A stretch of 64,000 nucleotides of DNA from Candidatus Sulfobium sp. (GTDB lineage: Bacteria; Nitrospirota; Thermodesulfovibrionia; Thermodesulfovibrionales; UBA6898). Under the pieces are notes generated by a model. That model did no database searches and had not been told where the DNA came from. It saw nothing but the letters and a program-made list of their open reading frames with translations. Shown one piece after another: positions 5,454-58,973 of this stretch. Position 1 is the stretch's first letter, and the number at the start of each line of letters is the position of its first letter. A program made the translations under genes and the position numbers. The stretch covers positions 98,783 through 162,782 of the forward strand of contig JARRRI010000009.1 in the NCBI GenBank assembly GCA_037380845.1, read 5' to 3'.

Positions 5454-5479
5454 TTTATAAAACCTCGCCCTCGATTCGA

Positions 5480-5495
5480 AGCAAATAGTGTTCCA
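5480..5495 (-). promoter_or_regulatory. sigma54 (-24/-12) promoter of pilY1
   Basis: TGGAACACTATTTGCT, GG-N10-GC, 27 nt upstream of ATG 5453. Confidence 0.7.
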
Positions 5496-5522
5496 CTTAA
5501 ACGGGGATGAAGGCAATTGCCA

Positions 5523-5618
5523 TAAGTGCTTTATTATGAATGAGTTACAACCATGTCCGCTCCGCTTCAGTCTCGGAATTGTGTAATCCGCTTCCCAACT
5601 ATGTAATCAGCTACACAA
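5523..5618. promoter_or_regulatory. IHF-like site and tandem activator (bEBP) sites upstream of the pilY1 sigma54 promoter
   Basis: TATGAATGAGTTA (5535-5547, 1 mismatch to WATCAANNNNTTR); repeats TGTAATCCGCTTCCCAA (5582-5598) and TGTAATCAGCTACACAA (5602-5618) with 20-bp period. Confidence 0.55.
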
Positions 5619-5712
5619 TCGCACGTCCTCTTTTTCGTTCTTTTCACTATGGATTATGAGAGGCACCGACGTCCTTGACCGGGAGCACCTGCAGGCTGTA
5701 GAATCCTTCTGA

Positions 5713-5910
5713 ATGGCAGCCAACAAAAAGACAAAGTCCTTCTGATCGGATGGGATGCGGCAGACAGGAAGATCATTCACCGGCTGGTCGACGAAGGCAG
5801 GATGCCTAACGTGGCGAGGTTTGTCGAGGAAGGTGTGATCGGCAACCTGGATCTGCCTGCCGGCAGACGGGCGGACGAGGCCGGAATTACGGGCAAACGA
5901 CCAAAAGGCC
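5713..5910 (+). pseudogene. N-terminal remnant of alkaline-phosphatase-superfamily (type I phosphodiesterase) gene
   Basis: Reads KVLLIGWDAADRKIIHRLVDEGRMPNVARFVEEGVIGNL..ITGKRP; out of frame with ATG 5713; similarity ends at the convergent gene. Confidence 0.7.
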
Positions 5911-5911
5911 T

Positions 5912-7642: not shown

Positions 7643-9155
7643 TAACCGGACCGAAACCCGGAAGTTCCAGCCCTTCGAAGGTCGATTCCTTCAGGTACAC
7701 ATAAATGGGCTCGCGGGCATCGCGTAATTCGATCCTGCGCCTGACATAGAGGCGCCCGAGGCCTTCTTCATTCACATCTGTCTCTCCAAAAATGATGTCG
7801 GCATCCTGACCTCCGGGTGTCTTGTAATCGCCGTATTCGACGTTGGGAAAGCGCGAAAAGAGCCACGGCAGGGGCCATGAGTCTTTCAGCTTGATGAGTA
7901 TCTTCATGTTGTGATACTCAGGGGAGACCTTAATCTTTTGCCGTATGATATCCTGTACGTCTCTGATATCGTTTTTTGTCTGAACATAAACATAGGGCTC
8001 GGCCGGGTCCGTATAGCGGATAAAATTCAGCCTGTAACTCACAACGGCCGACCTGGCCAGGATTATAACAACAATTCCGGCGGCTACCCGGTAAAGGACG
8101 TCTCTCTTCCCACCGGACCTGTCAACCAGGTCTTCCGTCCACAGCCCGGCGACAAAAAAGAAAGGCCAGATCAGGCTGATGATACACCACGGAGTCTTGT
8201 AGGGAATAAAGGAATATATCAGGAAGTTGACGAGGGCCAGTACCGAAAAGAACCTCATCTTCCATGAACGGCCGAAAACTCCGGCGCAGGCACCTGCGAG
8301 TCCGGCGAGTGCGGGCCATTCATACCTGCCCAGCAGCTGCAGCCAGTAATAGAAGGGCTTGTCGTGGCCGGATGCGCCTATCCCGGTCTTGAGCCAGGGC
8401 ATAATGGCGACAAAAAAGTCGGAGGCCCCTTTCCAGTTATGAAAGAATCCGGTATAGAGGGCGAGCCAGGCAAGGAACGCCACAGACCCCGCCTTAAGGA
8501 GGAACGGTGCTCCAAGCCCCTCACTTTTCTCCCGGTGCGGCCTCCCGGCATCTCCCTTCCCCTTTGTCTGCTTCAGTATGGCGGGTGACAACTCCACCCA
8601 GGCCCATGCGGCCAGGAAGGCGACGCAGAGGATAACGAACGTCTCCTTGAGCAGAAGACAGCCCGTGAGACCGGCCAGGAACCTGATAACGGCTCGCCGC
8701 TCCGCCTTCTCTCTCAACTCTATAAACCCCAGCATCCACAGAACCTGAAAAAAGACATATATCGGCTCGTGAATCGCCGAGCGTCCGAAAAATATTACCC
8801 CCGGGCTCAGGGCCATGGCCAGCGCAGCCGCGTGACTGCCGTAACGTCCGAGGACGGTGGAACTGCGCATGGCAAGCCACACGGTTAAAAATGAAAAAAG
8901 GGCTGTTACGAACCGGAAGGAACCGACCCCGAACCCGAAGATCTTCTCCGATATCTGGAAGAGATAAAAAAGCAGGGGACCGTGATAATTACCCGGGTCA
9001 TAGGTAAAAAAACCGTTCGTCCATATCTGATTAACAAAATAACCGTTGATGCCTTCGTCGAAATGGGGGGGCTTCAGAGACAACGCGGAAAAGAGAAAAA
9101 GTCCGGCCGCCGCAAGGACCGAATAGCGCAGAATTCTGCCTTCAGCAGCGGTCAT
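7617..9155 (-). CDS. TIGR03663/Agl23-like GT-C (PMT-type) membrane glycosyltransferase
   Basis: PPHFDEGIN, YDPGNYHGPLLFY, GHDKPFYY, YSFIPYKTPW, EPYVYVQT, WPLPW motifs. Confidence 0.75.
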   Translation of the reverse strand: MTAAEGRILRYSVLAAAGLFLFSALSLKPPHFDEGINGYFVNQIWTNGFFTYDPGNYHGPLLFYLFQISEKIFGFGVGSFRFVTALFSFLTVWLAMRSSTVLGRYGSHAAALAMALSPGVIFFGRSAIHEPIYVFFQVLWMLGFIELREKAERRAVIRFLAGLTGCLLLKETFVILCVAFLAAWAWVELSPAILKQTKGKGDAGRPHREKSEGLGAPFLLKAGSVAFLAWLALYTGFFHNWKGASDFFVAIMPWLKTGIGASGHDKPFYYWLQLLGRYEWPALAGLAGACAGVFGRSWKMRFFSVLALVNFLIYSFIPYKTPWCIISLIWPFFFVAGLWTEDLVDRSGGKRDVLYRVAAGIVVIILARSAVVSYRLNFIRYTDPAEPYVYVQTKNDIRDVQDIIRQKIKVSPEYHNMKILIKLKDSWPLPWLFSRFPNVEYGDYKTPGGQDADIIFGETDVNEEGLGRLYVRRRIELRDAREPIYVYLKESTFEGLELPGFGPVNAPEGKVL

Positions 9156-9198
9156 CGATCAAAACAGGGCCGAACAAAGAGCCTGCGGCGGGAAGGGG

Positions 9199-9651
9199 TC
9201 AAAGCCAATGGGGAAGACCTTCTGTCCTGACCACCAGCCACTTCATCCTCTCCTTATCGAGGGTGAATCTGATGTGGAGAGGTCTCGCTCCATCGGCGAG
9301 GATATAGCCGGTATCGGGACCGCGTGTCGCCGCTACCCTAACGTCAACTTCGGCTGTCGCGCTTTCGTCCCTGACGTTTATTTTCTTTATATCGTACTCG
9401 ACGCTGACGTCCTTCACCTCGCCGAAGGCCTTTTCCATCAGCTTCCTGAGATATAGATAGGACAGACCGTTGTCGTCGGTGTAATTGAAGGAGACCCTGG
9501 ACATCACGTCGTCAACCTTCCGCTCTTCTATCGCATGCGCCCCCTCGCTGAAGAGTTTCCTGATCCGGGCCTCGTCGGAAGGCCACAGGAAATGGACCAT
9601 TACTGGAGCCAGGAAAAGGAGCGTAAGGAGCGCGATCGATTTTTTGCTCAC
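9199..9651 (-). CDS. Membrane-anchored NTF2/SnoaL-like protein
   Basis: GTG start overlapping bioA stop (GTGA); N-terminal TM then SDEARIRKLF..W.V NTF2-like pattern. Confidence 0.6.
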   Translation of the reverse strand: MSKKSIALLTLLFLAPVMVHFLWPSDEARIRKLFSEGAHAIEERKVDDVMSRVSFNYTDDNGLSYLYLRKLMEKAFGEVKDVSVEYDIKKINVRDESATAEVDVRVAATRGPDTGYILADGARPLHIRFTLDKERMKWLVVRTEGLPHWL

Positions 9652-11054
9652 GTTACCGCCTTTATCGACTCCCCGATCACATCGAGCATCCTCCGGAGGT
9701 CCTGTTCGCTTATATTGAGCGGGGGCATTATCACCACCACATTCCCTAGAGGCCTTATAAATACGCCTTTTCCCCGCGCATGCATTGAAACCCGCCAGCC
9801 CATCTTTTCCTCCCATGGATAAGGCTCCTTCGTGGGCCGGTCCTTCACAAGCTCTACTCCAGCCATAAACCCCCTGTTCCTGGCTTCGCCCACATGCTTC
9901 AGGCGCGAGATCTCCCGGAGTCCCCGTTCTAGAAGTTTGATTCTGCTCTGGAGCCTCTTCAGGGTGCCCTCCTTTTCGAAAATATCGAGGCAGGCCAGTG
10001 CGGCGGCGCACCCCAGGGGATTGCCGGTATAGGAATGGCCGTGGAAAAAAGTTTTCAGGTCCCTGAAATCACCCAGAAAGGCGTCATACACCTCGCCGGT
10101 AGTGACTGTAACCGCCAGAGGGAGATAACCCCCCGTGATGCCCTTCGAGAGACAGAGCATGTCGGGCACAACCGACTCGTGCTCACACGCGAACATCAGC
10201 CCCGTCCTTCCGAAACCGGTCGCAACCTCGTCGGCGATGAGGAGCACATTATATCTGGTGCACAGATCGCGTACACCCCGAAGGTAGCCCGGGGGTGAAA
10301 CTATCATACCTCCCACTGCCTGGACAACAGGCTCGATTATTACGGCCGCGATTTCATCACCATGTCCCGCCAGGATACCTTCCATCTTCTTCAGACAAAA
10401 AATGTCGCAGCCGGGAAATTCACCTCCCAGTTCGCAACGGTAGCAGTATGGCGAAGGCGCCTTGAACGTCTTGAAAAGGAGAGGCCCGAACACCTCATGG
10501 AATATATCCACCCCTCCTACGCTTACCGCCCCGATAGTGTCGCCGTGATAGGCATTGTTTAGCGAAAGAAAACTGTTTTTCCCAGTGACGCCCTTATGCA
10601 GCCAGTACTGAAACGCCATCTTGAGCGCCACCTCGACAGCCGTAGACCCGTTATCGGAATAGAACACCCTTGAAAGGACGGGACCCTGCGCCTGCCCGGA
10701 AGATGGCAGCCACGAAGGGCTGCCCGTACGCCCGAACGACCGGCCAATGACCCCCATCAGTCTTTCAGCCAGTTTTATTGCCGGCACGTTGCTGAGGCCG
10801 AGCATTGTGCAGTGGCTTATTTGCTCAACCTGCTCCCTTATTGCGTCATCGATCTCTTTCTTCCTGTGACCGTGGATATTTACCCACAGCGAGGAGACGC
10901 CGTCCAGGTATCTGTTGCCCTCGATATCCTCGATGCAGGAGTCTGAGCCGCGGGCGACAATGACGGTCTTCTCTCTCTCCCAGTCCTTCATCTGGGTGAA
11001 AGGATGCCAGATGTACCTCTTGTCCAGTTCCTCGAGCCGACTTTGTTCTTCCAT
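9648..11054 (-). CDS. bioA: Adenosylmethionine-8-amino-7-oxononanoate aminotransferase
   Basis: IWHPFTQM, YSDNGSTAVEVALKMA, IADEVATGFGRTG, SKGITGGYLP, FFHGHSYTGNPL. Confidence 0.95.
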   Translation of the reverse strand: MEEQSRLEELDKRYIWHPFTQMKDWEREKTVIVARGSDSCIEDIEGNRYLDGVSSLWVNIHGHRKKEIDDAIREQVEQISHCTMLGLSNVPAIKLAERLMGVIGRSFGRTGSPSWLPSSGQAQGPVLSRVFYSDNGSTAVEVALKMAFQYWLHKGVTGKNSFLSLNNAYHGDTIGAVSVGGVDIFHEVFGPLLFKTFKAPSPYCYRCELGGEFPGCDIFCLKKMEGILAGHGDEIAAVIIEPVVQAVGGMIVSPPGYLRGVRDLCTRYNVLLIADEVATGFGRTGLMFACEHESVVPDMLCLSKGITGGYLPLAVTVTTGEVYDAFLGDFRDLKTFFHGHSYTGNPLGCAAALACLDIFEKEGTLKRLQSRIKLLERGLREISRLKHVGEARNRGFMAGVELVKDRPTKEPYPWEEKMGWRVSMHARGKGVFIRPLGNVVVIMPPLNISEQDLRRMLDVIGESIKAVT

Positions 11055-11251
11055 AAACCCTTATAGTCTACAACGGGGCCGCTTATCTTTCCAAGAATGC
11101 AGAGAAACATTTCACAACTGAGGTGCTGAGACACGGAGAAAGCCCTGTGCGGAAAACAGGAATAATCGTCAGGGGTATTAATTTGGCCTCTGCACTTTGC
11201 GATCTTGCGGGCCGGCATGAATAATTGCCTTTGCCAATTTAGGGATGCGGG

Positions 11252-12040
11252 TCAGAGCCCCTCAGACATGCCGGTCCGTCTGACGTATAAGACAAGGCCG
11301 GGAAGGCCTCCCAGGAAGTTTGCAAAAAACCATGAGAGGGAGAGAGACGTAGCCACTGCAGGGCTTACCCCGATGAGGCCGAGAAGAAGCACGAACGACC
11401 CCTCTCTCACGCCAAGCCCGGACACCGAGATGGGAATGGTGCTTACGGAAATAATAATCGGGAGAAAGACAAAGAGGAGGACCATAGGGATGTCCTCTCC
11501 CATGGCCAGGGCCAGGATAATCACCATAAAGAAATTAAGCAACTGGACGACGAGGGAGAGCAGCACGGCCTTGACGATGACATCCTTCCTGGATTTCAGC
11601 CTCCCGAAATAGTCATAAATTTCGCCGATGGAGCCGAATTTTTTTCCTAATTGCAGCCTGAAAAAAAGGATGCTCGCCACAACGAAGGTGACAAAAATCA
11701 GAGGCATAAGCCACTTGTACACCGTCTTCCCGAAATACCCGGCAGCAAAGGGAAAGGCTGAAATGCCTATGGTCATCAGACTCAAAAAACCAAAGTATCT
11801 GTCCATAAATACGGATGCCAGCGTGAGACTGCCGGGGAGGAGAAGCTTCCATCTCAAAGTCGACACGGCCTGCGCCATTACATAGGGAAGCGCCGCCAGG
11901 ACGAAATAAAGGGGACCGATCTTCGCCAGCATGAGGGCGAATTCCCTGACATCGATCCCGGAGAAGACGGCGTAGAGGGCCGCCGCACTGACAACCACCT
12001 TGACGATAAAGAAGAGGATCTTACGGGTTCCCGGGGCCAA
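11252..12040 (-). CDS. LPG-synthase TM / flippase-like (UPF0104) protein, apparently with an internal in-frame deletion
   Basis: RWKLLL, ASVFMDR, PISVSGLGVRE motifs; the usual FFNxxLP..GGD segment is absent. Confidence 0.75.
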   Translation of the reverse strand: MAPGTRKILFFIVKVVVSAAALYAVFSGIDVREFALMLAKIGPLYFVLAALPYVMAQAVSTLRWKLLLPGSLTLASVFMDRYFGFLSLMTIGISAFPFAAGYFGKTVYKWLMPLIFVTFVVASILFFRLQLGKKFGSIGEIYDYFGRLKSRKDVIVKAVLLSLVVQLLNFFMVIILALAMGEDIPMVLLFVFLPIIISVSTIPISVSGLGVREGSFVLLLGLIGVSPAVATSLSLSWFFANFLGGLPGLVLYVRRTGMSEGL

Positions 12041-12971
12041 TTACTTTCTTGATCACGTATATAGGTTTTTTCTGTGTTTCATGGTAGACCCGCACCATCA
12101 TCTCTCCCAGGAGACCCATCCCGATAAACTGTATCCCTACGATGATGAGCAGCGCCCCCAGCAGAAGGAGCGGCCTTCCGCCTATGTCCCTGCCCAGAAA
12201 GATCTTCTGAAAACTGAGATACAGGGAAATGAGTCCCCCCAGGGCCCCGCTGAAAATGCCCACCGGCCCGAAGAACTGGAGCGGCCGGGTCGAAAAACTG
12301 AGGAGGAACTTTACGGTTATCAGGTCGAGGACCACCCTGACCGTCCGGGAAATCCCATACTTCGACTTCCCCCTCAGCCTCGGATGGTGTACCGTTTCAA
12401 CTTCGGCGATTTTTACCCCGTACCACTTCGCCACGGCAGGGATAAACCTGTGCATCTCTCCGTATAGCTTCAGGTTTTTTATGACATCCCTGCGATATGC
12501 CTTCAGGGAGCACCCGTAGTCGTGAAGGTTCACCCCTGTTACCTTGCTTATCAGCCGGTTGGCCATCATTGAAGGCAGCCGCCTCGATAAAAAGGGGTCC
12601 TTCCTCCTCTTCCTCCATCCGCTGACTATATCGTGGTCCCTGATTGCTTCCAGGAGTTTTGGTATGTCCGCGGGGTCGTTCTGGAGGTCGCCGTCCATGG
12701 TGATGACGACGTCTCCGCGGGCGTAGTCGAACCCGGCGGCGAAGGCTGCGGTCTGGCCAAAGTTCCTTCTTAGACTGAGGGCAACCAGATTGCCGTCCCC
12801 GGATTGTATCCTCTCAAGCAGGGACAGCGTTCCATCGGAACTGCCGTCGTCGATGAAGATCATCTCGTATTCGATGTCGAGAGAGTCAAGCACCGCCTTA
12901 AGCCGGCGGTGGAGCTCCTCCACATTTTCCTCTTCGTTATAAAGCGGGACCACTACTGAAACGGTCATCAA
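12021..12971 (-). CDS. GT2 polyprenol-phosphate glycosyltransferase (ArnC/DPM1-like)
   Basis: VVVPLYNEEEN, DDGSSDGT, RNFGQTAA, MDGDLQNDP, two C-terminal TMs. Confidence 0.9.
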   Translation of the reverse strand: MMTVSVVVPLYNEEENVEELHRRLKAVLDSLDIEYEMIFIDDGSSDGTLSLLERIQSGDGNLVALSLRRNFGQTAAFAAGFDYARGDVVITMDGDLQNDPADIPKLLEAIRDHDIVSGWRKRRKDPFLSRRLPSMMANRLISKVTGVNLHDYGCSLKAYRRDVIKNLKLYGEMHRFIPAVAKWYGVKIAEVETVHHPRLRGKSKYGISRTVRVVLDLITVKFLLSFSTRPLQFFGPVGIFSGALGGLISLYLSFQKIFLGRDIGGRPLLLLGALLIIVGIQFIGMGLLGEMMVRVYHETQKKPIYVIKKVIGPGNP

Positions 12972-14946
12972 TAAATCTCCGCAGAGCTCATTTTCATGCC
13001 CTTGAAATCATAACACTTAAATATCGTAAATTTCATTATCTTGTCCCTTTTTATATGCACGGGAAACACCTCCTTGCTATATCTTTCAAAGGACTTTGCG
13101 AGCCGCTCAGGCATGTCCCTGTTCTCTCCGCGCACCACATATATGGCGTTATAACCTACCAGTTTTCCAAACCCGGGCCACAGGTCGTACTGGTTCATCC
13201 GCCTCCCGAGATTCACACAATATGTCACAGGGTTGCCCTTCACGTAGAAGGCAAGCTCTCCGGCGATCTGGTAGGTGTCTGAAAAGATGAACAGGGGACC
13301 GGCGGAAGACATCCCGGTTTCGATCCGGCTTGTCTCCTCGCCCAGCTCCTTCCAGCCCTGAAGCTTCTTGGCCGGGTCCAGTTTGAGAGGAAGGTTCAAT
13401 ATCGAGGGGACATAGGCAAAAACAGTCACCGCAAATGACAGGACGATAGCCGATGTCACCAGGACCTTGACGGACTTCCGGGCATGGCCTATGTCACGGA
13501 AATAATATGCAGCAAAGCCCACAAACCCCGTCGCGTAGGCAGGCAGCGCCCAATTGCCCTGCACCTTTCCCTGGATGCTCTTCAGTACAAAAAATGCGAT
13601 GACCGGAATGGAGAACCAGAAAAGGAAATCGCCCTTCTTATCCCTTTTCATCTTCCAGAGCGCGACAAAAATCATGACGCACAATATGGGCGTAACTACA
13701 CCCAGCTGGGACCCCAGAAATCCGAAGAAATGGTTCCATGAGATCCTCAGTCCGTCCGCCAGGTGCGCCTGACCGGCGGTGTGCTTCACTGTTACCCAGC
13801 CGTGTGCGGCGTTCCAGAAGACGACCGGACTGAAAACCACCAGACTGGCTGCAAAGGCGATATAAGGGCCGCCGGTCCTGAAGAGCTTCCTCGAATCTTT
13901 GTTGAAGACCATGAAAAGAAAAGCCGACAGGTAGAAGAAGGCCATCGTGTATTTAGCCAGCAGGCCGAATCCTACAGACAGGCCGAGAAGCAGCCAGTAA
14001 CGGTTCGCTTTCCGGCCTGTCTTCCGCCCCGCTGCCTTCCAGAAGAGGAAGAGCGAAAGTATCCAGAGGAACATGAACGGCGAATCTATTGTAAGCAGCA
14101 TCCCGAAGACGGAATAGAGCGGGACGATCTGGACCAGCAGGGCGGACACCAGACCCGTCCGTTTGTCGTAGAGGTTGCCGCCTATGAGGAAAATCACGAT
14201 GCTGCTCAATGCGGAAAGAAGGACCGCGAAAATCCTGACACCGAAGACGTTGTTACCGAAGAGGGAGGTGCCGACGTAAATCAAATAGGCGATCAGGGGA
14301 CCCTTGGAGTAGTAGCTCCAGTCGAGCCGTCTGGACCATTCCCAATATTGGGCCTCGTCAAAGCTCAGGTCGAAAGGGCCGGTCAGGATATAATAGATGC
14401 GGAAGAGTCCGAAAGCCAGAACCATCAGGTAGAGCGCCTGCGTGTAGTCGCGTTTCACGTAAATCTCCTTGGCCCACCTGGCAAGGCGGAGAAAGGCCCA
14501 GGCACATCCACCGCCGACAACGGCGCCTGCAGCGACATCAAAGGGATAGTGGACTCCCACATAGACACGGGATAGCCCGATGAGCGCCGCCGCGAGGACC
14601 ATGATGAAGCTGCCCCGGTCCCTGCGTGAAATCCAGAACACCGTTGCAAAGGCAAAGGTGTTCACGGCATGGTTGGACGGCATTGAAAAGGAAGACCCGC
14701 AACCGGCCATGAGATGGATATCCGGCAGCACGTGGCACGGCCGGGGCCTCGCGATCAGATGATTGAGGAAATGTCCGGTCCCTTCGGAAAAAATATCGGC
14801 GAAGACCGCCAGGACCATACGATGACCGGCAAAAAAAGCAGCGGTGGATAGTTGGTGACAAAAGGCATCACCACATCGAACACAGGGTTCTGAATACCCT
14901 TGTTGAGGAAGTGGAAAAGCGCGGTGTCAATGGAAGTAAGACTCAT
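12968..14946 (-). CDS. PAP2 phosphatase-ArnT/PMT glycosyltransferase fusion, frameshifted near 14818
   Basis: 14946-14819 PAP2 N-terminus (IDTALFHFLN..FDVVMP); 14818-12968 RPRP, SMPSNHA, SRVYVGVHYPFD then DEAQYWEWSRRLDWSYYSKGP, LAKYT. Confidence 0.8.
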
Positions 14947-29705: not shown

Positions 29706-29781
29706 TGGCGGTCCCAACGGGAATCGAACCCGTGTTTTAGCCTTGAGAGGGCCACGTCCTAGGCCTCTAGACGATGGGACC
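29706..29781 (-). tRNA. tRNA-Glu(CTC)
   Basis: GGTCCCATCGTCTAGAGG..CT-CTC-AA..GGTTCGATTCC..GCCA. Confidence 0.95.
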
Positions 29782-29874
29782 GAATTCAAAAAGTCAAGGG
29801 CTGGAGTTCTGAGTCATGCTTTCAGCAACTGTTTTCAGCTTAACACTTCGAACTCCGGCCTTTAACTGCATTTA

Positions 29875-29948
29875 TGGCTGGGGAGAGAGGATTCGAACCC
29901 CTATAAGCAGATCCAGAGTCTACCGTCCTGCCATTGGACGACTCCCCA
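29875..29948 (-). tRNA. tRNA-Gln(CTG)
   Basis: TGGGGAGTCGTCCAATGG..CT-CTG-GA..GGTTCGAATCC..GCCA. Confidence 0.95.
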
Positions 29949-30009
29949 AAAAAGCAATCCAGGAGACTTAATTTATAGCACAAAAAAGGGTCGTTTGTAA
30001 ACGTGGGGA

Positions 30010-30554
30010 CTTATTGCTCCTGCTGCTCAAAGAATGGATGTTCCGTGCCACGAGTTCTTTTCCGGTGCCGGTCTCTCCACGAATGAGTACAGTGGTTGAG
30101 GAGTTCGACGCCAGAAGGTTGATCATATGGATAAGACCCTGGGTCTGAGGACTTTTACCGACAATCGGATATTCAGGGTTCCGATAGAGTGCGGCCTCCT
30201 GTTTTATCTGCCTTATCCCGAGGCTCTTGTCGACCATGACCGCAAGTTCATCCAGATCAATCGGCTTCTGGAAGTAATACTCGGCGCCAAGTTTCATGGC
30301 CTTCACCGCCTCTTCAACCTCTCCGTACCCGGTCATCACTATAATGGATATCTCGGGATAGTCGCCCTTGACCGTCCGCAATACGTCGATCCCGTACATG
30401 TCGGGCAGCCGCAGATCGAGAATCACCAGATCCGGTATTTCCTTACGATAAAAGGCGATGCCCCCCGCGCCTGTCGAAACAGTCGCAACGTCAAAGTTTT
30501 TGCCTTCAAAAAAACCTTGAGACTGAGAGCTATGGTTTCGTCGTCTTCTATGAC
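30010..30554 (-). pseudogene. Fragment of NtrC-family sigma54 response regulator (receiver + start of AAA+)
   Basis: VIEDDETIALSLKVF, shift in T run, DLVILDLRLPD, QKP, GETGTGKELVAR; ends before GAFTGA. Confidence 0.8.
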
Positions 30555-30999
30555 CGAAGAGCAGTTTGACCTGGTCGAGCAGATCATCAATATCCTTGAA
30601 CTGATGATAGACGGAAGCGAATCTTACGTAGGCTACTTTGTCAAGGTCCCTCAGCTCCGTCATGATCCTTTCGCCTATCCAGGCACTCTGGACCTCCCTG
30701 ACACCAAGTCCCGCAAGCTGCTTTTCAATGATATCGACTATCCCGTCGAGTTTTGCCGTCTCGATAGGTCTTTTCTTGCACGCTATGAGGAGTCCTTTCT
30801 TTATCTTGCCGGTATCGAAGGGCTCCCTCCTGCCGTCTTTCTTCACTACCATGGGCACCACGTCCTCCACTCTTTCGTAGGACGTGAAGCGTCTGCCGCA
30901 TTGAAGGCATTCCCGTCTCCGCCGGATAGCGCTGCCCTCCCTGCTCGTCCTGGAATCTATTACCCTGTCTTCGAGGTTCTCACAGAAGGGACATTTCAT
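30555..30999 (-). CDS. nrdR: Transcriptional repressor NrdR (stop lost, runs into the regulator fragment)
   Basis: MKCPFC..DSR..IRRRRECLQCGRRFTSYE, ATP cone, VAYVRFASVY. Confidence 0.93.
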
Positions 31000-32810: not shown

Positions 32811-33044
32811 ACAACACCTTTCTGCCTGTTCTGTCTCTGTTATTCCCTGCCTCCGGAGCCTCTGCGGGGTTATTTATAACGGCATAATATCTTATCCGAG
32901 AGAAGATTTCTAAGTCAAGAAACGGCCTCTTCGGCGGCCGGCTTCACCCGGTCTCTCAAGCCCTTGAAATCTCATGGCATTTTTTCCGTTTTGAGGTACA
33001 ATAGGATAAAAATATGTCCCGTTTCTGATTCTCCTCAGAATGTC

Positions 33045-34700
33045 ATGAACCAGGAAAAGAAAGATCTGATCTCCGAGAATTCGAGAAAAATCCTGAGTAA
33101 GGATTTTTCTCAGCTGAAGGAAGCTGTAAACATTATTCTCTTTTACGATGATAAGGAGAACAAGTCCTTTAATGAATTTTCAGTGCAGCTTCTGAAGGAG
33201 CTTTCCGGGATCTCCGGCAAGATAAGACTGGGGTTTGAACGGATCGGCGGGCAACTGTCGGAAAAGTACAACGTGTCGCGCTCTCCCACTTTGCTCATAG
33301 AGCCCGAAAAGTATCGTATACGGATAACCGGAGCCCCCGCCGGCGAGGAGACCCGTACCCTGATGATATCTATCCTCATGGCTTCCACCGGCGCGACTAT
33401 CCTGACGGACGAAAGCAGGAAAAGACTGTCCGGGCTTGAAGATGCGAGGAATATAAAGGTCTTTGTGAGCCCCACATGTCCCTACTGCCCGCAGCAGGCC
33501 GCCCTTGCGGTGGCGGCGGCCATTGAAAGACCCGATCTGGTGAGCGCCGAGATAATAGAAATATTTGAAAACAGAGACCTCGCGGCACAGTACGACGCCC
33601 TCTCCGTTCCCCAGACTTTCATAGAAGACCGCCTGGTCGGACTCGGGCTTCAGCCCGAGGAAGTCTTCGTGGAAGAGATACTCACCGCGGCCCCCATAAA
33701 AGCCGCGCCGGGCAAGAAGGAAACAGGCGAGAAGGACCTGGTCATCATAGGGGCCGGCCCTGCCGGACTCACCGCGGCCATTTATGCGGAAAGAAGCGGC
33801 CTCGAATCGGTCGTAATCGAAAAGAGCAACATCGGGGGACAGGTTTCGATCACTCCCGTCGTTGAGAATTACCCCGGTTTTACAAAGATAGGCGGCAAGA
33901 CGCTTATGGACATGATGGCGCAGCAGGCCGTAAATTATGCCGACATCCGGGAGGGAGAGGAAGTTGTTGAAATCCGTAAGAGTGGAGAGGGCTTCGATGT
34001 CATCACCAACAGGATGAAATATGCTGCGAAGGCGGTTCTTCTGACCACGGGAGCCGAGAGCAGGAAACTCAATGTCCCCGGGGAGAAAGAATATCAGGGC
34101 AGGGGCGTCAGCTACTGTGCCACCTGCGACGGCTATTTTTTCAAAGACGGGAAAAAAGTGATCGTCGTGGGAGGCGGCAATACCGCTGCCACGGAGGCTC
34201 TCTATCTGAAGAATATCGGTGTCGATGTAAGTATAGTCCACAGAAGGGATGAGCTGAGGGCCGAGATGTTCCTGCAAAAGAGCCTTGAGGACAGCGGAGT
34301 GCCTGTCATATGGAATACAGTGGTGAAGGAAATCCTGGGAGACAAGATGGTAAACGCCGTCAGGCTCGAAAACCTTGAGAACCATTCGGTGACAACTTTG
34401 CCTGTGGACGGGGTATTTATAGCCATCGGATATGTACCCAATAACCAACTCGCTTCAAGTCTGGGAGTTGAAGTAGACAGGGAGGGGTACCTGAAAGTCG
34501 ATTCAAGGCACAGAACAAATGTTCCGGGAATTTATGCGGCAGGAGACATCACAGGCGGAATAAAACAGATCGTAACCGCTGTCAGCCAGGGTGCCGTCGC
34601 CGCCATGACGATATTCGAAGATTTCGCACACCCTTACTGGAAAGATACTGAATCAGGGCAGCAACCGACTGAAAGGGACTTTGTTCCCAAAAGCACGTAA
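33045..34700 (+). CDS. Protein-disulfide oxidoreductase-thioredoxin reductase fusion (AhpF-like)
   Basis: Two Trx folds with CPYC; GAGPAG, YCATCDG, GGGNTA, AAGD; start uncertain. Confidence 0.88.
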   Translation: MNQEKKDLISENSRKILSKDFSQLKEAVNIILFYDDKENKSFNEFSVQLLKELSGISGKIRLGFERIGGQLSEKYNVSRSPTLLIEPEKYRIRITGAPAGEETRTLMISILMASTGATILTDESRKRLSGLEDARNIKVFVSPTCPYCPQQAALAVAAAIERPDLVSAEIIEIFENRDLAAQYDALSVPQTFIEDRLVGLGLQPEEVFVEEILTAAPIKAAPGKKETGEKDLVIIGAGPAGLTAAIYAERSGLESVVIEKSNIGGQVSITPVVENYPGFTKIGGKTLMDMMAQQAVNYADIREGEEVVEIRKSGEGFDVITNRMKYAAKAVLLTTGAESRKLNVPGEKEYQGRGVSYCATCDGYFFKDGKKVIVVGGGNTAATEALYLKNIGVDVSIVHRRDELRAEMFLQKSLEDSGVPVIWNTVVKEILGDKMVNAVRLENLENHSVTTLPVDGVFIAIGYVPNNQLASSLGVEVDREGYLKVDSRHRTNVPGIYAAGDITGGIKQIVTAVSQGAVAAMTIFEDFAHPYWKDTESGQQPTERDFVPKST

Positions 34701-52868: not shown

Positions 52869-53387
52869 TCACAGGTCTTCAAGGCGAGGGAACCCGGACC
52901 CCTCCCCAGCGGGAGCCTTTCCGGAAATGCCCACCTCCTTCAGAAATCTGCCAAGACATATCATGATCGTCTGGAAACACTGTCTGTACTCCCTGAGGCT
53001 GCAGCCATAAGGGTCCGCTATCTTCCCCAGATTGCGGTCGGAAAAATCCGCCAGGTTATAGATCCTGTCGGCAGCGGAAATGTCCAGCGAAAGGACGAGT
53101 TCCACATGAACGGGCTCCATACAGACAACCAAATCGCTCCTCTCGATGATATTACCGTCGAGCCTCTTCGCCCTGTGGCTGGATATGTCGATCCCCTGCT
53201 CCCGACAGGCGACCACCGAGAATTCAGAAGGAGCGTTGCCTTCAAGGGCATGGGTCCCCGCAGAAGAAGCTCTTACACCCGGGAATATTTCGGGCATCCC
53301 GGAGAGAATACCCTCGGCCATGGGGCTCCGGCAGATATTGCCGGTACAGACGGCAAGGATGTTTATTTTGTCCCCGATATCGGTCAA
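52869..53387 (-). CDS. Low-molecular-weight protein tyrosine/arginine phosphatase
   Basis: VCTGNICRSPMAE, SAGT, IADPYG; TTG start inferred. Confidence 0.88.
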   Translation of the reverse strand: MTDIGDKINILAVCTGNICRSPMAEGILSGMPEIFPGVRASSAGTHALEGNAPSEFSVVACREQGIDISSHRAKRLDGNIIERSDLVVCMEPVHVELVLSLDISAADRIYNLADFSDRNLGKIADPYGCSLREYRQCFQTIMICLGRFLKEVGISGKAPAGEGSGFPRLEDL

Positions 53388-53478
53388 CTCACCGCTCGCG
53401 TTTTGTAAATAGTATCTCCTGAAGTTATAATAACAGATTGCAGGGAGGATTTTAGAACCCCTGTTTGACGAAAAAGAG

Positions 53479-54204
53479 ATGGATGCAGAGACCAGGAGAT
53501 TAGGGATCGCCGACAGTTTCGACTTCCGGTGCGGCAGGGACCTGGAATGCTTCAACAGGTGCTGCAGGGACGTCAATCTTTTCCTCACTCCGTACGATAT
53601 CTTGCGGATAAAGCGCAGGCTTAATGTCTCTTCACATGAGTTTCTTAACACGTACACCTTTCCTCTTTTTCCCGAAGAGATAGGTCATCCGGTAATCCTG
53701 ATGAAGATGGTGCCGGACGACTCCAGAAACTGTCCGTTTGTAGGCAGTGAAGGGTGCATGATCTATGAGGACAGACCCTGGTCCTGCAGAAGCTTCCCCC
53801 TCGAGCCGGTGGCCGGTGCGATGCCGGAAGGATTTGAGATCGTGAAACGGGATTTTTGTATGGGCTTCGGCGGCGGTAAACGCCATACCGTTAAAAAATG
53901 GCGTGACACACAGAATGTGGTCGTCTACGAAGAGATTAATGAAGAGTGGAAAAAATTGACCCATCATGAGAATTTTTCCTCCAGGAACATGCTTGAAGGA
54001 CATCCGAGGGACATTTTTTTCCTGGGAAGTTACAATATCGACGAGTTCAGAAACGTTGTATTTAAAGGGGACTTCCTGAAATTTTTCGATGTGGATAAGG
54101 CTGTATTAAAGAAGATCAGGGCCAATGAAACAGAACTCCTGAAATTTTCCTTCCGGTGGTTGCGCCATGTCCTGTTCGGCGACGACACCATGAAAAGGAA
54201 ATGA
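53479..54204 (+). CDS. YkgJ-family Cys-cluster protein
   Basis: CFNRCC, LTPYD, CPF..GC.IYEDRP.SCR.FP. Confidence 0.88.
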   Translation: MDAETRRLGIADSFDFRCGRDLECFNRCCRDVNLFLTPYDILRIKRRLNVSSHEFLNTYTFPLFPEEIGHPVILMKMVPDDSRNCPFVGSEGCMIYEDRPWSCRSFPLEPVAGAMPEGFEIVKRDFCMGFGGGKRHTVKKWRDTQNVVVYEEINEEWKKLTHHENFSSRNMLEGHPRDIFFLGSYNIDEFRNVVFKGDFLKFFDVDKAVLKKIRANETELLKFSFRWLRHVLFGDDTMKRK

Positions 54205-54460
54205 CGCCAATGTTTAAAGCTGGCAGACCCCTCTGCAGGGCTGTAAGGTGCCGCTGCAAGACATTTTTCGCCGCCCTGACGGGCTCCGCCAGTGTCTTAT
54301 CGCAGTTGCAGGGATTGATGTGATCGGTTATGTCCGATCTGTTATAATAATTAAAGTATGGCGTTTGTTAATCCAGGCGCGTGAATGTGAGGGTCTCCAT
54401 TGAACACGAGTATGACGGGGCTCAATAAATCCAGTGACCCTCGCGAAAAGGAGCGATTAC

Positions 54461-55111
54461 ATGTCACAGGTCATGGAAGATAAAAAGACGATCTGTCCGC
54501 ACTGCGGACAGAAACTCAACAAGTGGAGCACCCCTTCGTTTAATTTTGCCGACGGGCTGGGATGGTGTACCCCCTTCCTCTATATCTGCTTCAATGACGA
54601 TTGCAGTTTTTATACCAACAGCTGGAAGCAGATGTCCGACACCTACGGACAGGAAATGGGTTACCGTTACATGGTCCACCCCGATTCCGGAGAGGCATCA
54701 AGCATTCCCTGCGGCAACAAGGATGCCATGAAGGGAGACATCATAGACGAGATAAGGGAGTCCCAGGAGAAAGCCGAACTCGAGGCGAGAAAAAAGGCGG
54801 CCCAGGTCCTTACCGACTATTTCATCGCCAGGGACCTGGACTCGATATTGGGAGTGCTGACTGACGAAGAAGGATTCGGCAGCATACGGCTGAAAGCGGC
54901 CGATCACCTCGGAGAGATCGGGGACCTCCGGGCCATAGAGCCCATGGCCAACCACACTTTCGCCAACGAGGTGATTCAGGCCAGGGTGGAAGCGGCCATC
55001 CGCAAGATACACGAGAAGAACTTCACGATGGAGTGTCCCTACTGCGCTGAGACCATCAAGATCCGCGCCAAGATCTGCAAGCATTGCGGGAAAGAACTCA
55101 CAGCTAAATAA
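54461..55111 (+). CDS. Zinc-ribbon / HEAT-like conserved protein
   Basis: CPHC..GLGWCTPFLYICFNDDC; C-terminal CPYCAE..CKHC. Confidence 0.8.
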   Translation: MSQVMEDKKTICPHCGQKLNKWSTPSFNFADGLGWCTPFLYICFNDDCSFYTNSWKQMSDTYGQEMGYRYMVHPDSGEASSIPCGNKDAMKGDIIDEIRESQEKAELEARKKAAQVLTDYFIARDLDSILGVLTDEEGFGSIRLKAADHLGEIGDLRAIEPMANHTFANEVIQARVEAAIRKIHEKNFTMECPYCAETIKIRAKICKHCGKELTAK

Positions 55112-55126
55112 TGATATTGAACCCCG

Positions 55127-55156
55127 AGGGGGCCGCTTGCCGGCGGCCCCCTTCTA
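55127..55156 (+). terminator. Hairpin, probable intrinsic terminator
   Basis: AGGGGGCCGC-ttgccg-GCGGCCCCCT then TCTA; weak U tract. Confidence 0.55.
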
Positions 55157-55236
55157 TCTGTCTGCCTTTTTCCTCTTCCGGCGCTGTGTTATACTTTGGT
55201 CAGACAGTGCGTAACCGCTGAAAGCAGGATTTTTCT

Positions 55237-56037
55237 ATGGACAAAGGAAAAAACAACAAAATCCGGCAACTCGTTATAAAAAGCTATTCGTCTGCCGCGG
55301 CGGGGTCCCCTTCCGTCTTTCCGGCAGGCAGCTGCTGTTCGCCGAGCTCCGGCAGTATCAGCCTCTTCGAGACAGGCAAACGGCTGGGGTACTCCGACGA
55401 AGAGCTGAAGATCGGCCTGGGCGAGGCGAACCTGGGTCTCGGATGCGGAAACCCCCATGCTATCGCCGACCTTAAAGAGGGAGAGAGGGTGCTTGACCTC
55501 GGGAGCGGCGCAGGCTTCGACGCCTTCCTCTCCGCCATGAAGGTAGGTCCCGAAGGGTTCGTCATCGGTGTCGACATGACACCGGAGATGGTCGGAAAAG
55601 CAGGGGAGAATGCGGAGAAACTTAAGGCGAAAAATGTTGATTTCAGACTTGGAGAGATAGAGCGCCTTCCCGTCCGGGATTCGGAGGTGGATGTGGTCAT
55701 TTCCAATTGCGTGATCAATCTTTCCCCCGACAAACAGGCGGTCTTCGATGAGGCATTTCGCGCTCTCAGGCCCGGGGGGCGGCTTGCGATCTCCGACATA
55801 TTGAAAAAAGGGGATTTTTCCGAGGAGATCAGGAAGAACGAGCAGGCTTACAGCGGTTGAATCACCGGCTCGGTTCCCGTGGAGGAACTGGAGGAGATCC
55901 TCAAAAAGGCCGGGTTCAGGGACGTCGTCATCCAGAACAAGGACAACAGTGACGACATCATCAGGAGCTGGAACTTCGGTGAGGGCGTCGAGAAGATGGT
56001 CTTTTCGGCCTATATCAAGGCCACGAAGCCGGAATAG
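55237..56037 (+). CDS. arsM: Arsenite methyltransferase, probable selenoprotein (UGA 55858-55860)
   Basis: GLGCGNP, LDLGSGAGFD, ISNCVINL; frame continues past TGA as ITGSV..AGF..SAYIKATKPE to TAG 56037. Confidence 0.9.
55869..55893 (+). promoter_or_regulatory. Bacterial SECIS-like hairpin
   Basis: CGGTTCC-CGTGGA-GGAACTG; loop begins about 17 nt after UGA with G in its first two positions. Confidence 0.65.
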
Positions 56038-56107
56038 CAGCAGCTGATGACGGCCTGACAACATCCGATCCGTCCAAAACGCTGCAAAAAAGCTTCAACT
56101 CGACTCC

Positions 56108-56249
56108 GTCATTCCCGAGGCAGTAATCGGGTCGAAGCGACTCTCAGCCAAGTCGTAGCGACCCCGCGCGGAGACCCGCTTCGGGACTCCCATCGGGAAT
56201 CCAGGTTTTCAGAGAGATTGGATGCCCGACTAAGGACCTCGGGCATGAC
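56108..56249. repeat. REP-like palindromic repeat with nested 66-bp insertion
   Basis: GTCATTCCCG..ATCGGG[insert]ATCGGG AATCCA..TGGATGCCCG..CGGGCATGAC. Confidence 0.75.
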
Positions 56250-56315
56250 GAAAAAGGCCTGGTAACATTCAGTGAACTCCGGCATTGAGGGTATTGCGAG
56301 GGGTTTGATCACGCC

Positions 56316-57374
56316 ATGCTTGAAATCGACGGCAGTTACGGCGAGGGAGGCGGTCAGATACTCAGGACGTCCCTCGGCCTCTCATGTCTTCTGCAGAAAC
56401 CCTTCCGCATTTTCAATATCCGGAAAAGCCGGAAAAAGCCCGGCCTCATGCCGCAGCATCTTGCCTGCGTCAGGGCGCTGGCCTGCCTGTCTCACGCCTC
56501 CGTCAGGGGCGATCACGAAGGGTCCGTTGAAATCATCTTCGAACCAGACAGGCCCGAGCCCGGAGATTACTATTTTGAGATCGGCACCGCCGGGTCGACT
56601 TCTCTCCTCTTTCAGGCTATCCTGCCGTCTCTCATAAGGGCCGGTGGCGATTCACGTATCACGCTGAAAGGCGGCACGCATGTGCCTTTCAGCCCGTCTT
56701 CTGATTACATTCGTGAAGTGTTTGCTCCCTCACTGGAGAAGCTGGGCATATGCCTGAAGATCGGGAGCGTGAGGTGCGGCTTTTATCCCAGGGGGGGAGG
56801 CGAAATCAGGATAGAGGTGTCGTGTCAGGGGAAGATAAGAGGCTTGACCCTGGAAGAAAGGGGTGAGGTAAGATCTATCAGGGGCGTATCAGGCGTGGGA
56901 AATCTGCCGGTGAGCATCGCGGAGCGCCAGAGGAAAGCGGCCCTCATCCCCCTTTTGCATTACGGACTGGCTGCGGAAATCGAACTGCTGGAGGTCCCGG
57001 CTTTCGGCAGAGGGACATTCCTCTTCCTCCTGTTTGAATCGGAAAACTGTATCGCCGGTTTTTCAGCGCTCGGCCAGATCGGGAAAAAAGCGGAGACTGT
57101 GGGGCAGGAGGCGGCCGGGGAACTCATCGGTTATTATCTCACGACAGCGTGTCTCGACCCGCATCTGGCGGACCAGATAATCCCTTACCTCGCCGTTGCC
57201 GAAGGCGAGTCGTCATTTACCGCCAGCCGCATATCGAACCATCTTCTGACCAACCTGTGGATAACGGAGAAGTTCGCGGGCATAAAATATACCGTCCACG
57301 GGGAGAAGGAGAAGCCGGGGAAGGTCTCCGTTCAGCCCGCCTGCACAATCATTAGAAAAGAATTTTGCCGGTGA
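56316..57374 (+). CDS. rtcA: RNA 3'-terminal phosphate cyclase
   Basis: IDGSYGEGGGQILR, PGLMPQH, GGTHV, GFYPRGGG, DPHLADQ. Confidence 0.95.
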   Translation: MLEIDGSYGEGGGQILRTSLGLSCLLQKPFRIFNIRKSRKKPGLMPQHLACVRALACLSHASVRGDHEGSVEIIFEPDRPEPGDYYFEIGTAGSTSLLFQAILPSLIRAGGDSRITLKGGTHVPFSPSSDYIREVFAPSLEKLGICLKIGSVRCGFYPRGGGEIRIEVSCQGKIRGLTLEERGEVRSIRGVSGVGNLPVSIAERQRKAALIPLLHYGLAAEIELLEVPAFGRGTFLFLLFESENCIAGFSALGQIGKKAETVGQEAAGELIGYYLTTACLDPHLADQIIPYLAVAEGESSFTASRISNHLLTNLWITEKFAGIKYTVHGEKEKPGKVSVQPACTIIRKEFCR

Positions 57375-57464: not shown

Positions 57465-58973
57465 CTAGGCGAAGCTCTTTTTTTCGACCAGACGGTAGTG
57501 GTTTTCGAATATCTTGCGGAAATGAAAGCCGTAGATCGTGAAAGTTATCGCCATAGGGAGGAGTCTCGGGCGTGTAAAGAGCGACCACAAAAAGAGCCTC
57601 CAGTAGTAGAAGCGCTCTTTCCCGAGGATGCCCAGAAAGACAACGGACTTGAGGGCGGCCTTGATGTGGCTGGCCTTGATATGCATCAGGTTTGCCTGCA
57701 CCGGCTTATAGTCTTTCAGAAATTCTTTGACCCTGGCGTAATAATGACGGGGGGAATAGATCGTCTGGATGATCTTCCGGTAGCCGTTAATAAGCGTCTC
57801 GGGGTTCATCCGGGGAACGAAATTAATTGAAAAGTCCGTGTTGTCACCGGTCGCCGCTTTCAGCAGCCTGCCTTCCTGTTGAAGGCGATGATAGAGTTTC
57901 GTCCCCTGAGGAGCATTTAGCAAACCGACCATCGCCGTCACGATGCCGCTTTCCTGGATAAAACCGATTAACCGTTCGAAGATCGTGGCAGGATCATTGT
58001 CGAAACCCACGATAAATCCCGCCTGGACCTCAAGCCCGAACCGCTGGATCTTCTTGACGCATGCCTTAAGGTCCCGGTTCTTGTTCTGGACCTTCTGACA
58101 TTCGACAAGACTCTCTTCATTCGGGGACTCGATCCCGACAAAGACCGTGGTGAACCCCGCCCCGACCATGAGGCGCATGAGTTCTTCGTCATCGGACAGG
58201 TTTATCGAGACCTCCGTAGAGAGAACGAAGGGATAGGAACGTTTTTCCATCCAGTCGATTATGGCGGGAAGAACCTCCTTCTTGAGCTTTGACCTGTTTC
58301 CTATGAAGTTATCGTCAACAAAGAAAACTCCTCCCCTCCACCCTTTAACGTAGAGGCCCTCCAGTTCGGCCAGTATCTGTTCCTTCTCCTTTGTGCGGGG
58401 TCTGCGTCCGTAAAGCACTGTGATATTGCAGAATTCGCAGTCGAAGGGGCAACCCCGCGAATACTGGATGTTCATCGAGGCATAAGGTTTCAGGTCAACC
58501 AGTTCCATGAGGGGGGCCGGCGTCTCTGTCACATCGGCCCACACCGGGGAGGTGTAACGGTGCTTCGCCCTTCCGTTGCTCAGGTCTTCAAGGAAGAGAG
58601 GAAGTGTTATTTCGGCCTCGTTGAGCACCAGGTGGTCCACATCCTCGAACCCTTCGGGCTCTCCGGTGAAAAGAGGCCCACCGGCTACCGTCCTGACGCC
58701 GAGAATCCTGCATCTGTCGATCACTTCCCTCGCCGAGTCGCCCTGGATCGACATCGCACTGACGAACACATAGTCCGCTCCCTCGATATCCTCATCCAGC
58801 AGGGGCTTGACATTCATGTCGATAAGCTTTTTCTCCCACTCGGCAGGAAGCATGGATGCTACCGTAAGCAGTCCCAACGGGGGAAGACTCGCCTTTTTCG
58901 AGATAAACTTCAGGGCGTGCTTGAAACTCCAGAACGTATCGGGATATTTAGGGTAAACGAGAAGAACCTTCAT
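57465..58973 (-). CDS. B12-binding radical SAM protein (DUF4070-type C-terminus)
   Basis: PPLGLLTVA, RGCPFDCEFC, FFVDDNFIGN, GFIVGFD. Confidence 0.92.
   Translation of the reverse strand: MKVLLVYPKYPDTFWSFKHALKFISKKASLPPLGLLTVASMLPAEWEKKLIDMNVKPLLDEDIEGADYVFVSAMSIQGDSAREVIDRCRILGVRTVAGGPLFTGEPEGFEDVDHLVLNEAEITLPLFLEDLSNGRAKHRYTSPVWADVTETPAPLMELVDLKPYASMNIQYSRGCPFDCEFCNITVLYGRRPRTKEKEQILAELEGLYVKGWRGGVFFVDDNFIGNRSKLKKEVLPAIIDWMEKRSYPFVLSTEVSINLSDDEELMRLMVGAGFTTVFVGIESPNEESLVECQKVQNKNRDLKACVKKIQRFGLEVQAGFIVGFDNDPATIFERLIGFIQESGIVTAMVGLLNAPQGTKLYHRLQQEGRLLKAATGDNTDFSINFVPRMNPETLINGYRKIIQTIYSPRHYYARVKEFLKDYKPVQANLMHIKASHIKAALKSVVFLGILGKERFYYWRLFLWSLFTRPRLLPMAITFTIYGFHFRKIFENHYRLVEKKSFA

Follow-up and report, generated by a model that had tools for sequence, protein, structure and literature searches.

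The closest described relatives of the gene treated here are arsenite methyltransferases (ArsM) that have been catalogued as selenoproteins. In a table from the Global Ocean Sampling survey (GOS) they appear as "Arsenite S-adenosylmethyltransferase, PRK11873", with eight selenocysteine (Sec, U) sequences (PMC2398784), and tables of two reviews, of 2022 and 2026, list an "Arsenite methyltransferase" with the motif UxxG and the representative WP_011987699.1, placed under "experimentally verified" with a citation of Fomenko et al., Science 2007 (PMC9312934, PMC13188914). A full-text literature search returned no dedicated or biochemical study of Sec-containing ArsM. The 2007 work is said to have verified the cysteine (Cys) of AS3MT from mammals, and not that a bacterial ArsM has Sec inserted. 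Here we describe a gene of this kind from Candidatus Sulfobium sp. (Nitrospirota), located at positions 55237..56037 of a 64,000-nucleotide (nt) stretch of contig JARRRI010000009.1 that is referred to as the window. An original prediction, made from the sequence of the window, had presented it as a Sec-ArsM, a type said to be predicted in selenoproteome surveys and little studied, which agrees with the three tables and with the outcome of the literature search. Since Sec-ArsM is already catalogued, the gene is a correct call and not a discovery: it is an additional, mis-callable member of an established selenoprotein family.

Other described proteins provide further points of comparison. The ArsM of Cyanidioschyzon merolae, CmArsM (PDB 4fr0, 4fsd, 4kw7, 5jx7 and others), has an S-adenosylmethionine (SAM) methyltransferase fold, and its conserved cysteines 44, 72, 174 and 224 have served as a criterion for ArsM proteins, at least three of the four being expected in the wording of one paper (PMC5552862). 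Short bacterial Cys forms of ArsM are represented by a protein of 263 amino acids (aa) named for Desulfofarcimen acetoxidans DSM 771 (P0046), and the human AS3MT (PDB 8xt7) is a longer, eukaryotic Cys enzyme. Finally, there are fused ArsM selenoproteins, NF041537 (ArsM/AhpD), NF041536 (ArsM/DUF2284) and NF047649 (methyltransferase/UXPK-star), whose models span 283-459 positions and include two to three Sec, and for which one of the reviews tabulates the same UxxG Sec motif (PMC13188914).

We consider it highly probable that the window gene encodes a 266-residue ArsM (NF008823) in which the third arsenic-binding Cys is replaced by Sec. The sense open reading frame (ORF), 55237..55860 (+), starts with ATG at 55237, encodes 207 aa and ends in AYSG followed by TGA 55858-55860. 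Past this codon the same frame remains open for 58 sense codons, up to TAG 56035-56037, and reading the UGA as U yields a translation of 266 residues with U at position 208. The original prediction had described the same arrangement (an ORF stopping at YSG-TGA, 58 further codons and 266 aa in all), with coordinates that match the sequence. Only one TGA lies inside the gene's 266 codons; another, found at codon 36 of a longer ORF in the scan for in-frame TGAs described below, is upstream of ATG 55237. The features of the gene are the following, A1 and A4 being two of our alignments:

55237..56037, + strand: complete coding sequence of an ArsM-family SAM-dependent methyltransferase, 266 aa, with codon 208 (UGA) taken as Sec and the stop TAG 56035-56037; based on the ORF, its translation, PF13847, NF008823 and solved ArsM structures
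55333..55338, + strand: Cys33-Cys34 pair, candidate equivalent of CmArsM Cys44, invariant in A1
55444..55446, + strand: codon of Cys70 in the GCGNP motif, corresponding to CmArsM Cys72, invariant in A1 and nearly invariant in A4
55492..55515, + strand: glycine-rich SAM-binding motif LDLGSGAG, residues 86-93, invariant in A1 and A4 and inside the Pfam methyltransferase domain
55708..55710, + strand: codon of Cys158 in the SNCV motif, corresponding to CmArsM Cys174, invariant in A1 and A4
55858..55860, + strand: proposed Sec208 codon, the in-frame UGA, corresponding to CmArsM Cys224, in a UxxG motif (here U-I-T-G); based on the TGA/Cys codon pairing
55861..56034, + strand: the 58 codons after the UGA, encoding one helix and two beta-strands of the fold; based on homology with Cys forms, purifying selection (proportions of nonsynonymous and synonymous differences, pN 0.09-0.23 and pS 0.41-0.84) and the structural model
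55870..55891, + strand: hairpin resembling a selenocysteine insertion sequence (SECIS), its stem formed by 55870-55877 with 55884-55891 (eight pairs, including two G-U) and closed by a 6-nt loop, 55878-55883

Judged by its sequence, the product is a genuine ArsM-family (NF008823) methyltransferase with a single domain. It scores 319.9 bits against the NCBIfam model NF008823, "arsenite methyltransferase" (EC 2.1.1.137), which has a cut-off of 263 and is a 'subfamily' model, not an equivalog; residues 5-266 align with profile positions 3-269 of 272. The class I SAM methyltransferase domain is recognised by PF13847 (E 3.2e-38) over residues 80-226, spanning the UGA, and by PF13649 (E 5.4e-20). 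The best sequence matches among solved structures are arsenite methyltransferases: 5evj (E 3.7e-29), 4fr0 and 4kw7 (about 5e-26) and the human AS3MT 8xt7 (2.2e-25). When aligned with CmArsM, Cys70 falls on Cys72, Cys158 on Cys174 and then, after 50 ungapped residues, U208 on Cys224, the third arsenic-binding Cys. The UGA is therefore located at the last conserved Cys, as had been claimed, and the motifs GCGNP, SNCV and a later third one, all named in the original prediction, are present, the third as U208 followed by ITG. If Sec is counted there are three conserved thiol or selenol positions; otherwise there are two certain Cys plus Cys33/34 as a candidate pair for Cys44.

An AlphaFold model, built from 24 aligned sequences, has a mean predicted local distance difference test score (pLDDT) of 80.7 and a predicted template modelling score (pTM) of 0.81. 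The segment after the UGA is modelled with confidence and includes a helix (residues 215-225) and two strands (228-234 and 255-263), with a block-mean pLDDT of 72-98 over the blocks covering residues 201-266. A fold search with this model gave ArsM chains as nine of its ten top PDB matches (E 2.5e-16 to 1.3e-15; query-normalised template modelling score, TMq, 0.55-0.61). The best of them are ArsM structures with 4fr0 at E 2.5e-16 and TMq of 0.58-0.61, and human AS3MT is also matched. The earlier description of the protein as ArsM-like is thus borne out both by the NF008823 score above its curated cut-off and by ArsM structures as the best fold matches. Since the arsenic-site residue 208, the helix and the two strands all come with or after the UGA, a 207-residue product would lack them.

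Like the catalogued Sec-arsenite methyltransferase (NF008823/PRK11873, WP_011987699.1), as this is described in the tables, the window protein belongs to the same curated family and includes the UxxG motif, a single Sec and a single domain. Unlike it, the gene comes from a Nitrospirota clade and has no ars neighbours here. The protein shares with CmArsM the SAM methyltransferase fold and the placement of C72/C174/C224 on C70/C158/U208, at 34-37% identity, whereas CmArsM has Cys at 224, chains of 377-383 aa (about 110 residues longer) and an extra C-terminal domain. The homologous fold and the cysteine positions are also shared with human AS3MT. The Desulfofarcimen protein is of the same length and architecture, with 59% identity in A1 and a collinear C-terminus; in contrast to the window gene, short Cys forms have TGC or TGT at the position of the TGA and only 4/65 have a positioned hairpin (defined below). 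The methyltransferase part of the fused ArsM selenoproteins is also similar (E 5e-50 to 4e-44) but the window protein, with one domain and one Sec, is not a member of the fused models, as it scores 160 bits with NF041536 (cut-off 575), 170.2 with NF041537 (cut-off 510) and 150.8 with NF047649 (cut-off 460).

Comparison with relatives bears on the identity of residue 208. A single scan of species-representative genomes yielded 80 loci. Where these align with U208, the codon is TGA in 15 and TGC or TGT in the other 65, and no other codon is found; the alignment of UGA with Cys among ArsM relatives, put forward in the original prediction as a check, is therefore observed at every locus. In each of the 15 TGA loci the U208-aligned TGA is the sole in-frame stop inside the match, and in each of the 16 TGA sequences, the window among them, a further 56-104 codons can be read before the next stop. 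An open frame of 58 codons is weak evidence by itself, and takes its weight from homology with the Cys forms together with the TGA/Cys pairing at 80/80 loci. Indeed, the 58 residues after the UGA, used alone, align without gaps with residues 206-262 of the 263-aa Desulfofarcimen Cys form (53% identity, E 2e-20), the alignment beginning directly after its Cys205. The same codons differ from those of the Nitrospirota relatives at proportions of 0.09-0.17 for nonsynonymous sites (pN) and 0.41-0.81 for synonymous sites (pS). The ratio of nonsynonymous to synonymous substitution rates (dN/dS) after the UGA is 0.19 for locus L001, 0.07 for L002, 0.07 for L004 and 0.14 for L005, similar to that of the 100 codons upstream, and is given for these four loci only, dS being saturated for L003 and L006. 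Purifying selection downstream of the UGA, whose lack had been named beforehand as a reason to abandon the prediction, is thus present, at dN/dS of 0.07-0.19. On the strength of these comparisons, the in-frame UGA most likely encodes Sec at the arsenic-binding position.

The length of the frame after the Sec codon is not uniform: it is 104 codons in L014 (10604 onward), 71 in L008 and 69 in L020, and 56-61 elsewhere. The stop that follows is once more a TGA in L006, L007 and L014, and such frames may hold a C-terminal extension or a second Sec codon.

A quick maximum-likelihood tree of 81 sequences places the TGA forms in two groups, a 14-row clade of Nitrospirota and Desulfobacterota-type sequences (Shimodaira-Hasegawa-like approximate likelihood ratio test, SH-aLRT, 97) and a Paraclostridium pair, and requires a minimum of two Sec/Cys changes. 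The window falls inside a six-row Nitrospirota clade (97), with L001 as its nearest neighbour at 75% identity. In anaerobic lineages the Sec form of the ArsM family appears to be common, and not sporadic.

Bacterial SECIS elements (bSECIS) are stem-loops located directly downstream of the UGA, with a G in the first positions of the loop. The original prediction had noted a hairpin, CGGTTCC-CGTGGA-GGAACTG, at SECIS spacing. It is present at the usual distance, starting 10 nt after the UGA, and its equivalents are enriched in TGA forms over Cys forms. The core arms, 55871-55877 and 55884-55890, gain one more pair if U-G (55870/55891) is counted; the loop, with G at its second position, begins 17 nt downstream of the UGA, and the fold has an energy of -9.4 kcal/mol. 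Against shuffled sequences this hairpin is unremarkable, and its support therefore comes from the comparison with relatives. Raw folding energy was tried as a discriminator and gave no separation (mean -13.5 kcal/mol for TGA forms vs -16.2 for Cys forms, with a G+C content of 0.63 in the Cys forms vs 0.52); it was replaced by a shuffle-normalised z. So normalised, the stretch +11..+42 has a mean z of -1.57 in the TGA forms (n=16) and of +0.07 in the Cys forms (n=65; one-sided Mann-Whitney p 9.6e-7). We also defined a positioned hairpin as at least six contiguous pairs closed by a loop that is 3-8 nt long, begins 16-26 nt downstream of the codon and has a G in its first two bases. Such a hairpin was found in 11/16 TGA forms and in 4/65 Cys forms. 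The five TGA forms that fail are L002-L004, with a stem of five base pairs and one mismatch, and L010 and L014, where the script picked an equally long alternative hairpin.

The stem sequences differ among lineages (Nitrospirota, one metagenome-assembled genome (MAG) of Desulfobulbaceae, Desulfobacterales-type MAGs and Paraclostridium). Among seven Desulfobacterales-type sequences, pairing is retained in 49/49 cells of the alignment and 2/7 pairs show compensatory double changes; 24/500 shuffles score as high. In the six Nitrospirota sequences all six third-codon positions over the hairpin (columns 18-33) are invariant; in the four codons that precede it and the six that follow, by contrast, every third position varies, a pattern which we read as an RNA-level constraint on top of coding. 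A single consensus structure over the 16 codon-aligned TGA sequences failed (-1.81 kcal/mol), because the hairpin shifts by up to 3-4 nt between lineages, and pairs were then counted per clade.

In the standard bacterial Sec mechanism, the hairpin 10 nt past UGA208 would recruit SelB-GTP with Sec-tRNA(Sec), and the ribosome would insert Sec at UGA208 instead of terminating and would finish at TAG 56035-56037. By extension of the CmArsM mechanism, trivalent arsenic, As(III), would be held by Cys158 and Sec208, while Cys70, and perhaps Cys33/34 too, would act in the initial methylation and in the cascade of disulfides; SAM, located in the Rossmann site at LDLGSGAG, would donate the methyl group. 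Compared with a thiolate, a selenolate is the softer ligand and its pKa is lower, and Sec is therefore expected to bind As(III) more tightly or to react faster or at lower pH. More speculatively, such a tighter or faster site might make the output of the enzyme dependent on selenium supply, an idea which the original prediction had put as a coupling of Se supply to As methylation.

A number of results weigh against this interpretation or narrow it. Taken on its own, the 71-nt fold of the window has a z of -1.51, with 16/200 shuffles folding as well, and the 32-nt stretch has a z of -0.87, not significant alone. In the window's own Nitrospirota clade (six sequences) 44/48 cells pair, there are no double changes and hence no covariation, and shuffles are uninformative. 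The criteria for the positioned hairpin were fixed after hairpins had been seen. Moreover, the TGA sequences are related, the tree needing only two Sec/Cys changes, so that the p-values overstate their independence. Rfam gave no match at gathering thresholds over the whole window, nor at E values up to 10 over 55780-55980. None of selA, selB, selD or a tRNA-Sec gene lies within the 64-kb window, whose only RNA genes are adjacent tRNA-Glu(CUC) and tRNA-Gln(CUG) genes at 29706-29948 (-); reviews describe selB/selC arrangements in Nitrospirae. A scan of the window for a second selenoprotein, which considered ORFs that contain one or two in-frame TGAs and hardly overlap other genes, produced no candidate, only low-complexity or non-coding-looking extensions, and there is thus no independent sign that the organism decodes UGA as Sec. 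As to the remaining cysteines, residues 24-40 around Cys33/34 have a pLDDT below 50 and the N-terminus is outside the PDB alignments; equivalence of the pair with CmArsM Cys44 is a candidate only.

The alternative that survives best, which we nevertheless judge unlikely, accepts an ArsM-fold selenoprotein and gives it a physiological substrate other than arsenite, such as a thiol/selenol compound or some different soft metalloid. It draws on the genomic context, in which ArsM genes usually, though not necessarily, have arsenic-resistance genes (arsR, acr3/arsB, arsC) nearby. The window neighbours are a zinc-ribbon protein (54434-55111) and an RNA 3'-phosphate cyclase, rtcA (56316-57374), and no arsR, acr3/arsB or arsC was found within about 5 kb in the window, so that the original prediction was correct in stating that such neighbours are absent. 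Among the relatives, ORFs within 3.5 kb were considered for 12 of the 15 TGA loci (L003, L007 and L011 were left out). There are no arsenic-type neighbours in six of them, the Nitrospirota loci L001, L002, L004 and L005, plus L006 and L008, that is in 4/4 of the Nitrospirota relatives examined. Since neither the window nor these four relatives have an ars flank, arsenite is assigned to them as a substrate from family membership only. In addition, NF008823 is only a 'subfamily' model, and NCBIfam includes related methyltransferase selenoproteins of unknown role (NF047649, NF041536 and NF041537). On the other side, the protein exceeds the curated cut-off of NF008823, it keeps all three of the arsenic-site positions that align, and relatives in the same 14-row Sec clade adjoin ArsR, ArsP, SBF-family and LMWPc genes. 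Arsenic-type neighbours were found in 6/12 TGA loci (L009, L010, L014, L020, L075 and L080) and include ArsR-type HTH_5 proteins, ArsP_1 permeases, SBF-family transporters, LMWPc, thioredoxin-like and DsbD_TM proteins. The SBF family is one which we take to include Acr3.

In four of these loci, of Desulfobacterota type, the Sec-arsM gene is located within a gene cluster: L009 (~6500-14100), L010 (~1600-8400), L014 (~7400-14100) and L020 (~7300-13700). The clusters comprise ArsR, ArsP_1, small thioredoxin-like proteins, DsbD_TM, an SBF-family transporter, rhodanese and LMWPc, forming a thiol/disulfide-rich arsenic set.

The remaining alternatives concern the UGA itself. We give little credence to read-through in which the residue inserted is not, or not only, Sec: a near-cognate Trp or Cys, or Cys delivered by the Sec pathway under selenium scarcity. 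That a thiol works at position 208 is clear from the Cys forms, which is in its favour. However, TGA is an ordinary stop here, ending 22/57 window ORFs of at least 90 codons, and a general reassignment of UGA, rejected on this count, does not apply. Furthermore, a UGA on a Cys position together with a positioned hairpin is the defining pattern of bacterial selenoproteins, and the family is catalogued as one.

Still less probable, in our estimation, is that the TGA is a true stop, leaving a cut-off methyltransferase of 207 residues and a downstream 52-codon ORF (GTG 55879 to 56037) that is separate or untranslated. This is the outcome of standard gene calling: among the best 120 protein-database matches 117 are short forms predicted in the same way, 116 of these ending in AY[ST][GS] exactly before the Sec codon. 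The window also shows no Sec machinery, as noted above. Against a true stop, the codons past the TGA continue in frame and are homologous to the Cys-form C-terminus from directly after the Cys, they are under purifying selection as strong as that upstream, the position is Cys in 65/65 non-TGA homologues, and termination would give a product without one arsenic-binding residue, one helix and two strands. The three full-length proteins among the best 120 have Cys at the Sec position. The short database forms look like a systematic mis-annotation of the Sec form; for several of them the source gives the name 'arsenite methyltransferase' or 'SAM-dependent methyltransferase'. Least probable of all is a pseudogene or an assembly or sequencing error in which TGC or TGT was mutated or misread to TGA, for although a single substitution would suffice and a metagenome-type assembly is probable, the nearest relatives being MAGs, 15 independent species-level genomes (Nitrospirota, Desulfobacterota and Paraclostridium) share this TGA, more than 100 database clusters stop at the Sec codon, there are no other disruptions, dN/dS is low after the codon, and the hairpin goes with TGA and not with Cys codons.

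For a family of a kind already known, the gain from a further Sec-ArsM is mainly in annotation and in ecology. The appropriate record for the gene is a single selenoprotein of 266 residues and not a fragment of 207, and arsenic-methylation catalogues for anoxic environments probably hold many truncated entries of this Sec-ArsM clade. Comparing the Sec form directly with the Cys form would reveal what advantage selenium brings at an arsenic-binding site. A wider proposal, which we regard as doubtful, is that the Sec form prevails in anaerobic sulfur-cycling lineages (Nitrospirota and Desulfobacterota), where truncation by gene callers hides it, and that the gene departed from the ars operon in the Nitrospirota subclade, where the selenolate at the arsenic site could provide a high-affinity, selenium-dependent methylation for a purpose other than plain detoxification. 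If this were true, possible roles would include the production of toxic methylarsenite as a competitive weapon or the handling of trace metalloids, and surveys of arsM in anoxic soils and sediments would systematically misjudge these genes.

Other observations concern the surroundings of the gene. An antisense ORF, 55189..56064 (-), of 291 codons covers the whole arsM-like gene; it is longer than the 207-codon sense ORF and could mislead gene callers. No Pfam family was found in it, and as a real gene it was rejected: we take it for a shadow of the gene on the sense strand. At 55122-55160 (+), just after the stop of the upstream gene, the sequence shows an inverted repeat rich in GC and, behind it, a T-rich run. 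A scan of 54300-56500 for promoters and terminators gave nothing above shuffle expectation and did not report this repeat. The hairpin with its T-rich tail after the upstream gene and the gap of about 280 nt to rtcA suggest a separate transcription unit, and the arsM-like gene, from its layout, appears to be transcribed alone.

An LMWPc-family gene, 52869-53657 (-), is located 1.6 kb upstream. It falls below the cut-offs of the tyrosine-phosphatase and thioredoxin-type ArsC models; its domain begins at residue 100 and its listed start is probably too far upstream. Elsewhere in the window, a 343-aa ORF at 29968-30999 (-) combines an NrdR zinc ribbon, an ATP-cone, a response-regulator receiver and no more than the first 51 positions of a sigma-54 activator domain, which makes it either an uncommon fusion or a gene interrupted at the 3' end. 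At 32964-34700 (+) there is a 578-aa fusion of a thioredoxin-like/protein-disulfide-oxidoreductase N-terminus with a thioredoxin reductase, in which no in-frame TGA was seen. It scores 355.9 bits with TIGR01292 (cut-off 343) and 159 bits with TIGR02187 'PDO_seleno_TRX', below the cut-off of 185. Finally, 57465-58973 (-) encodes a B12-binding radical SAM protein with DUF4070, whose resemblance to P-methyltransferases and to ArsL, the radical SAM protein of arsinothricin, is weak and sub-threshold (31 bits vs a cut-off of 450).

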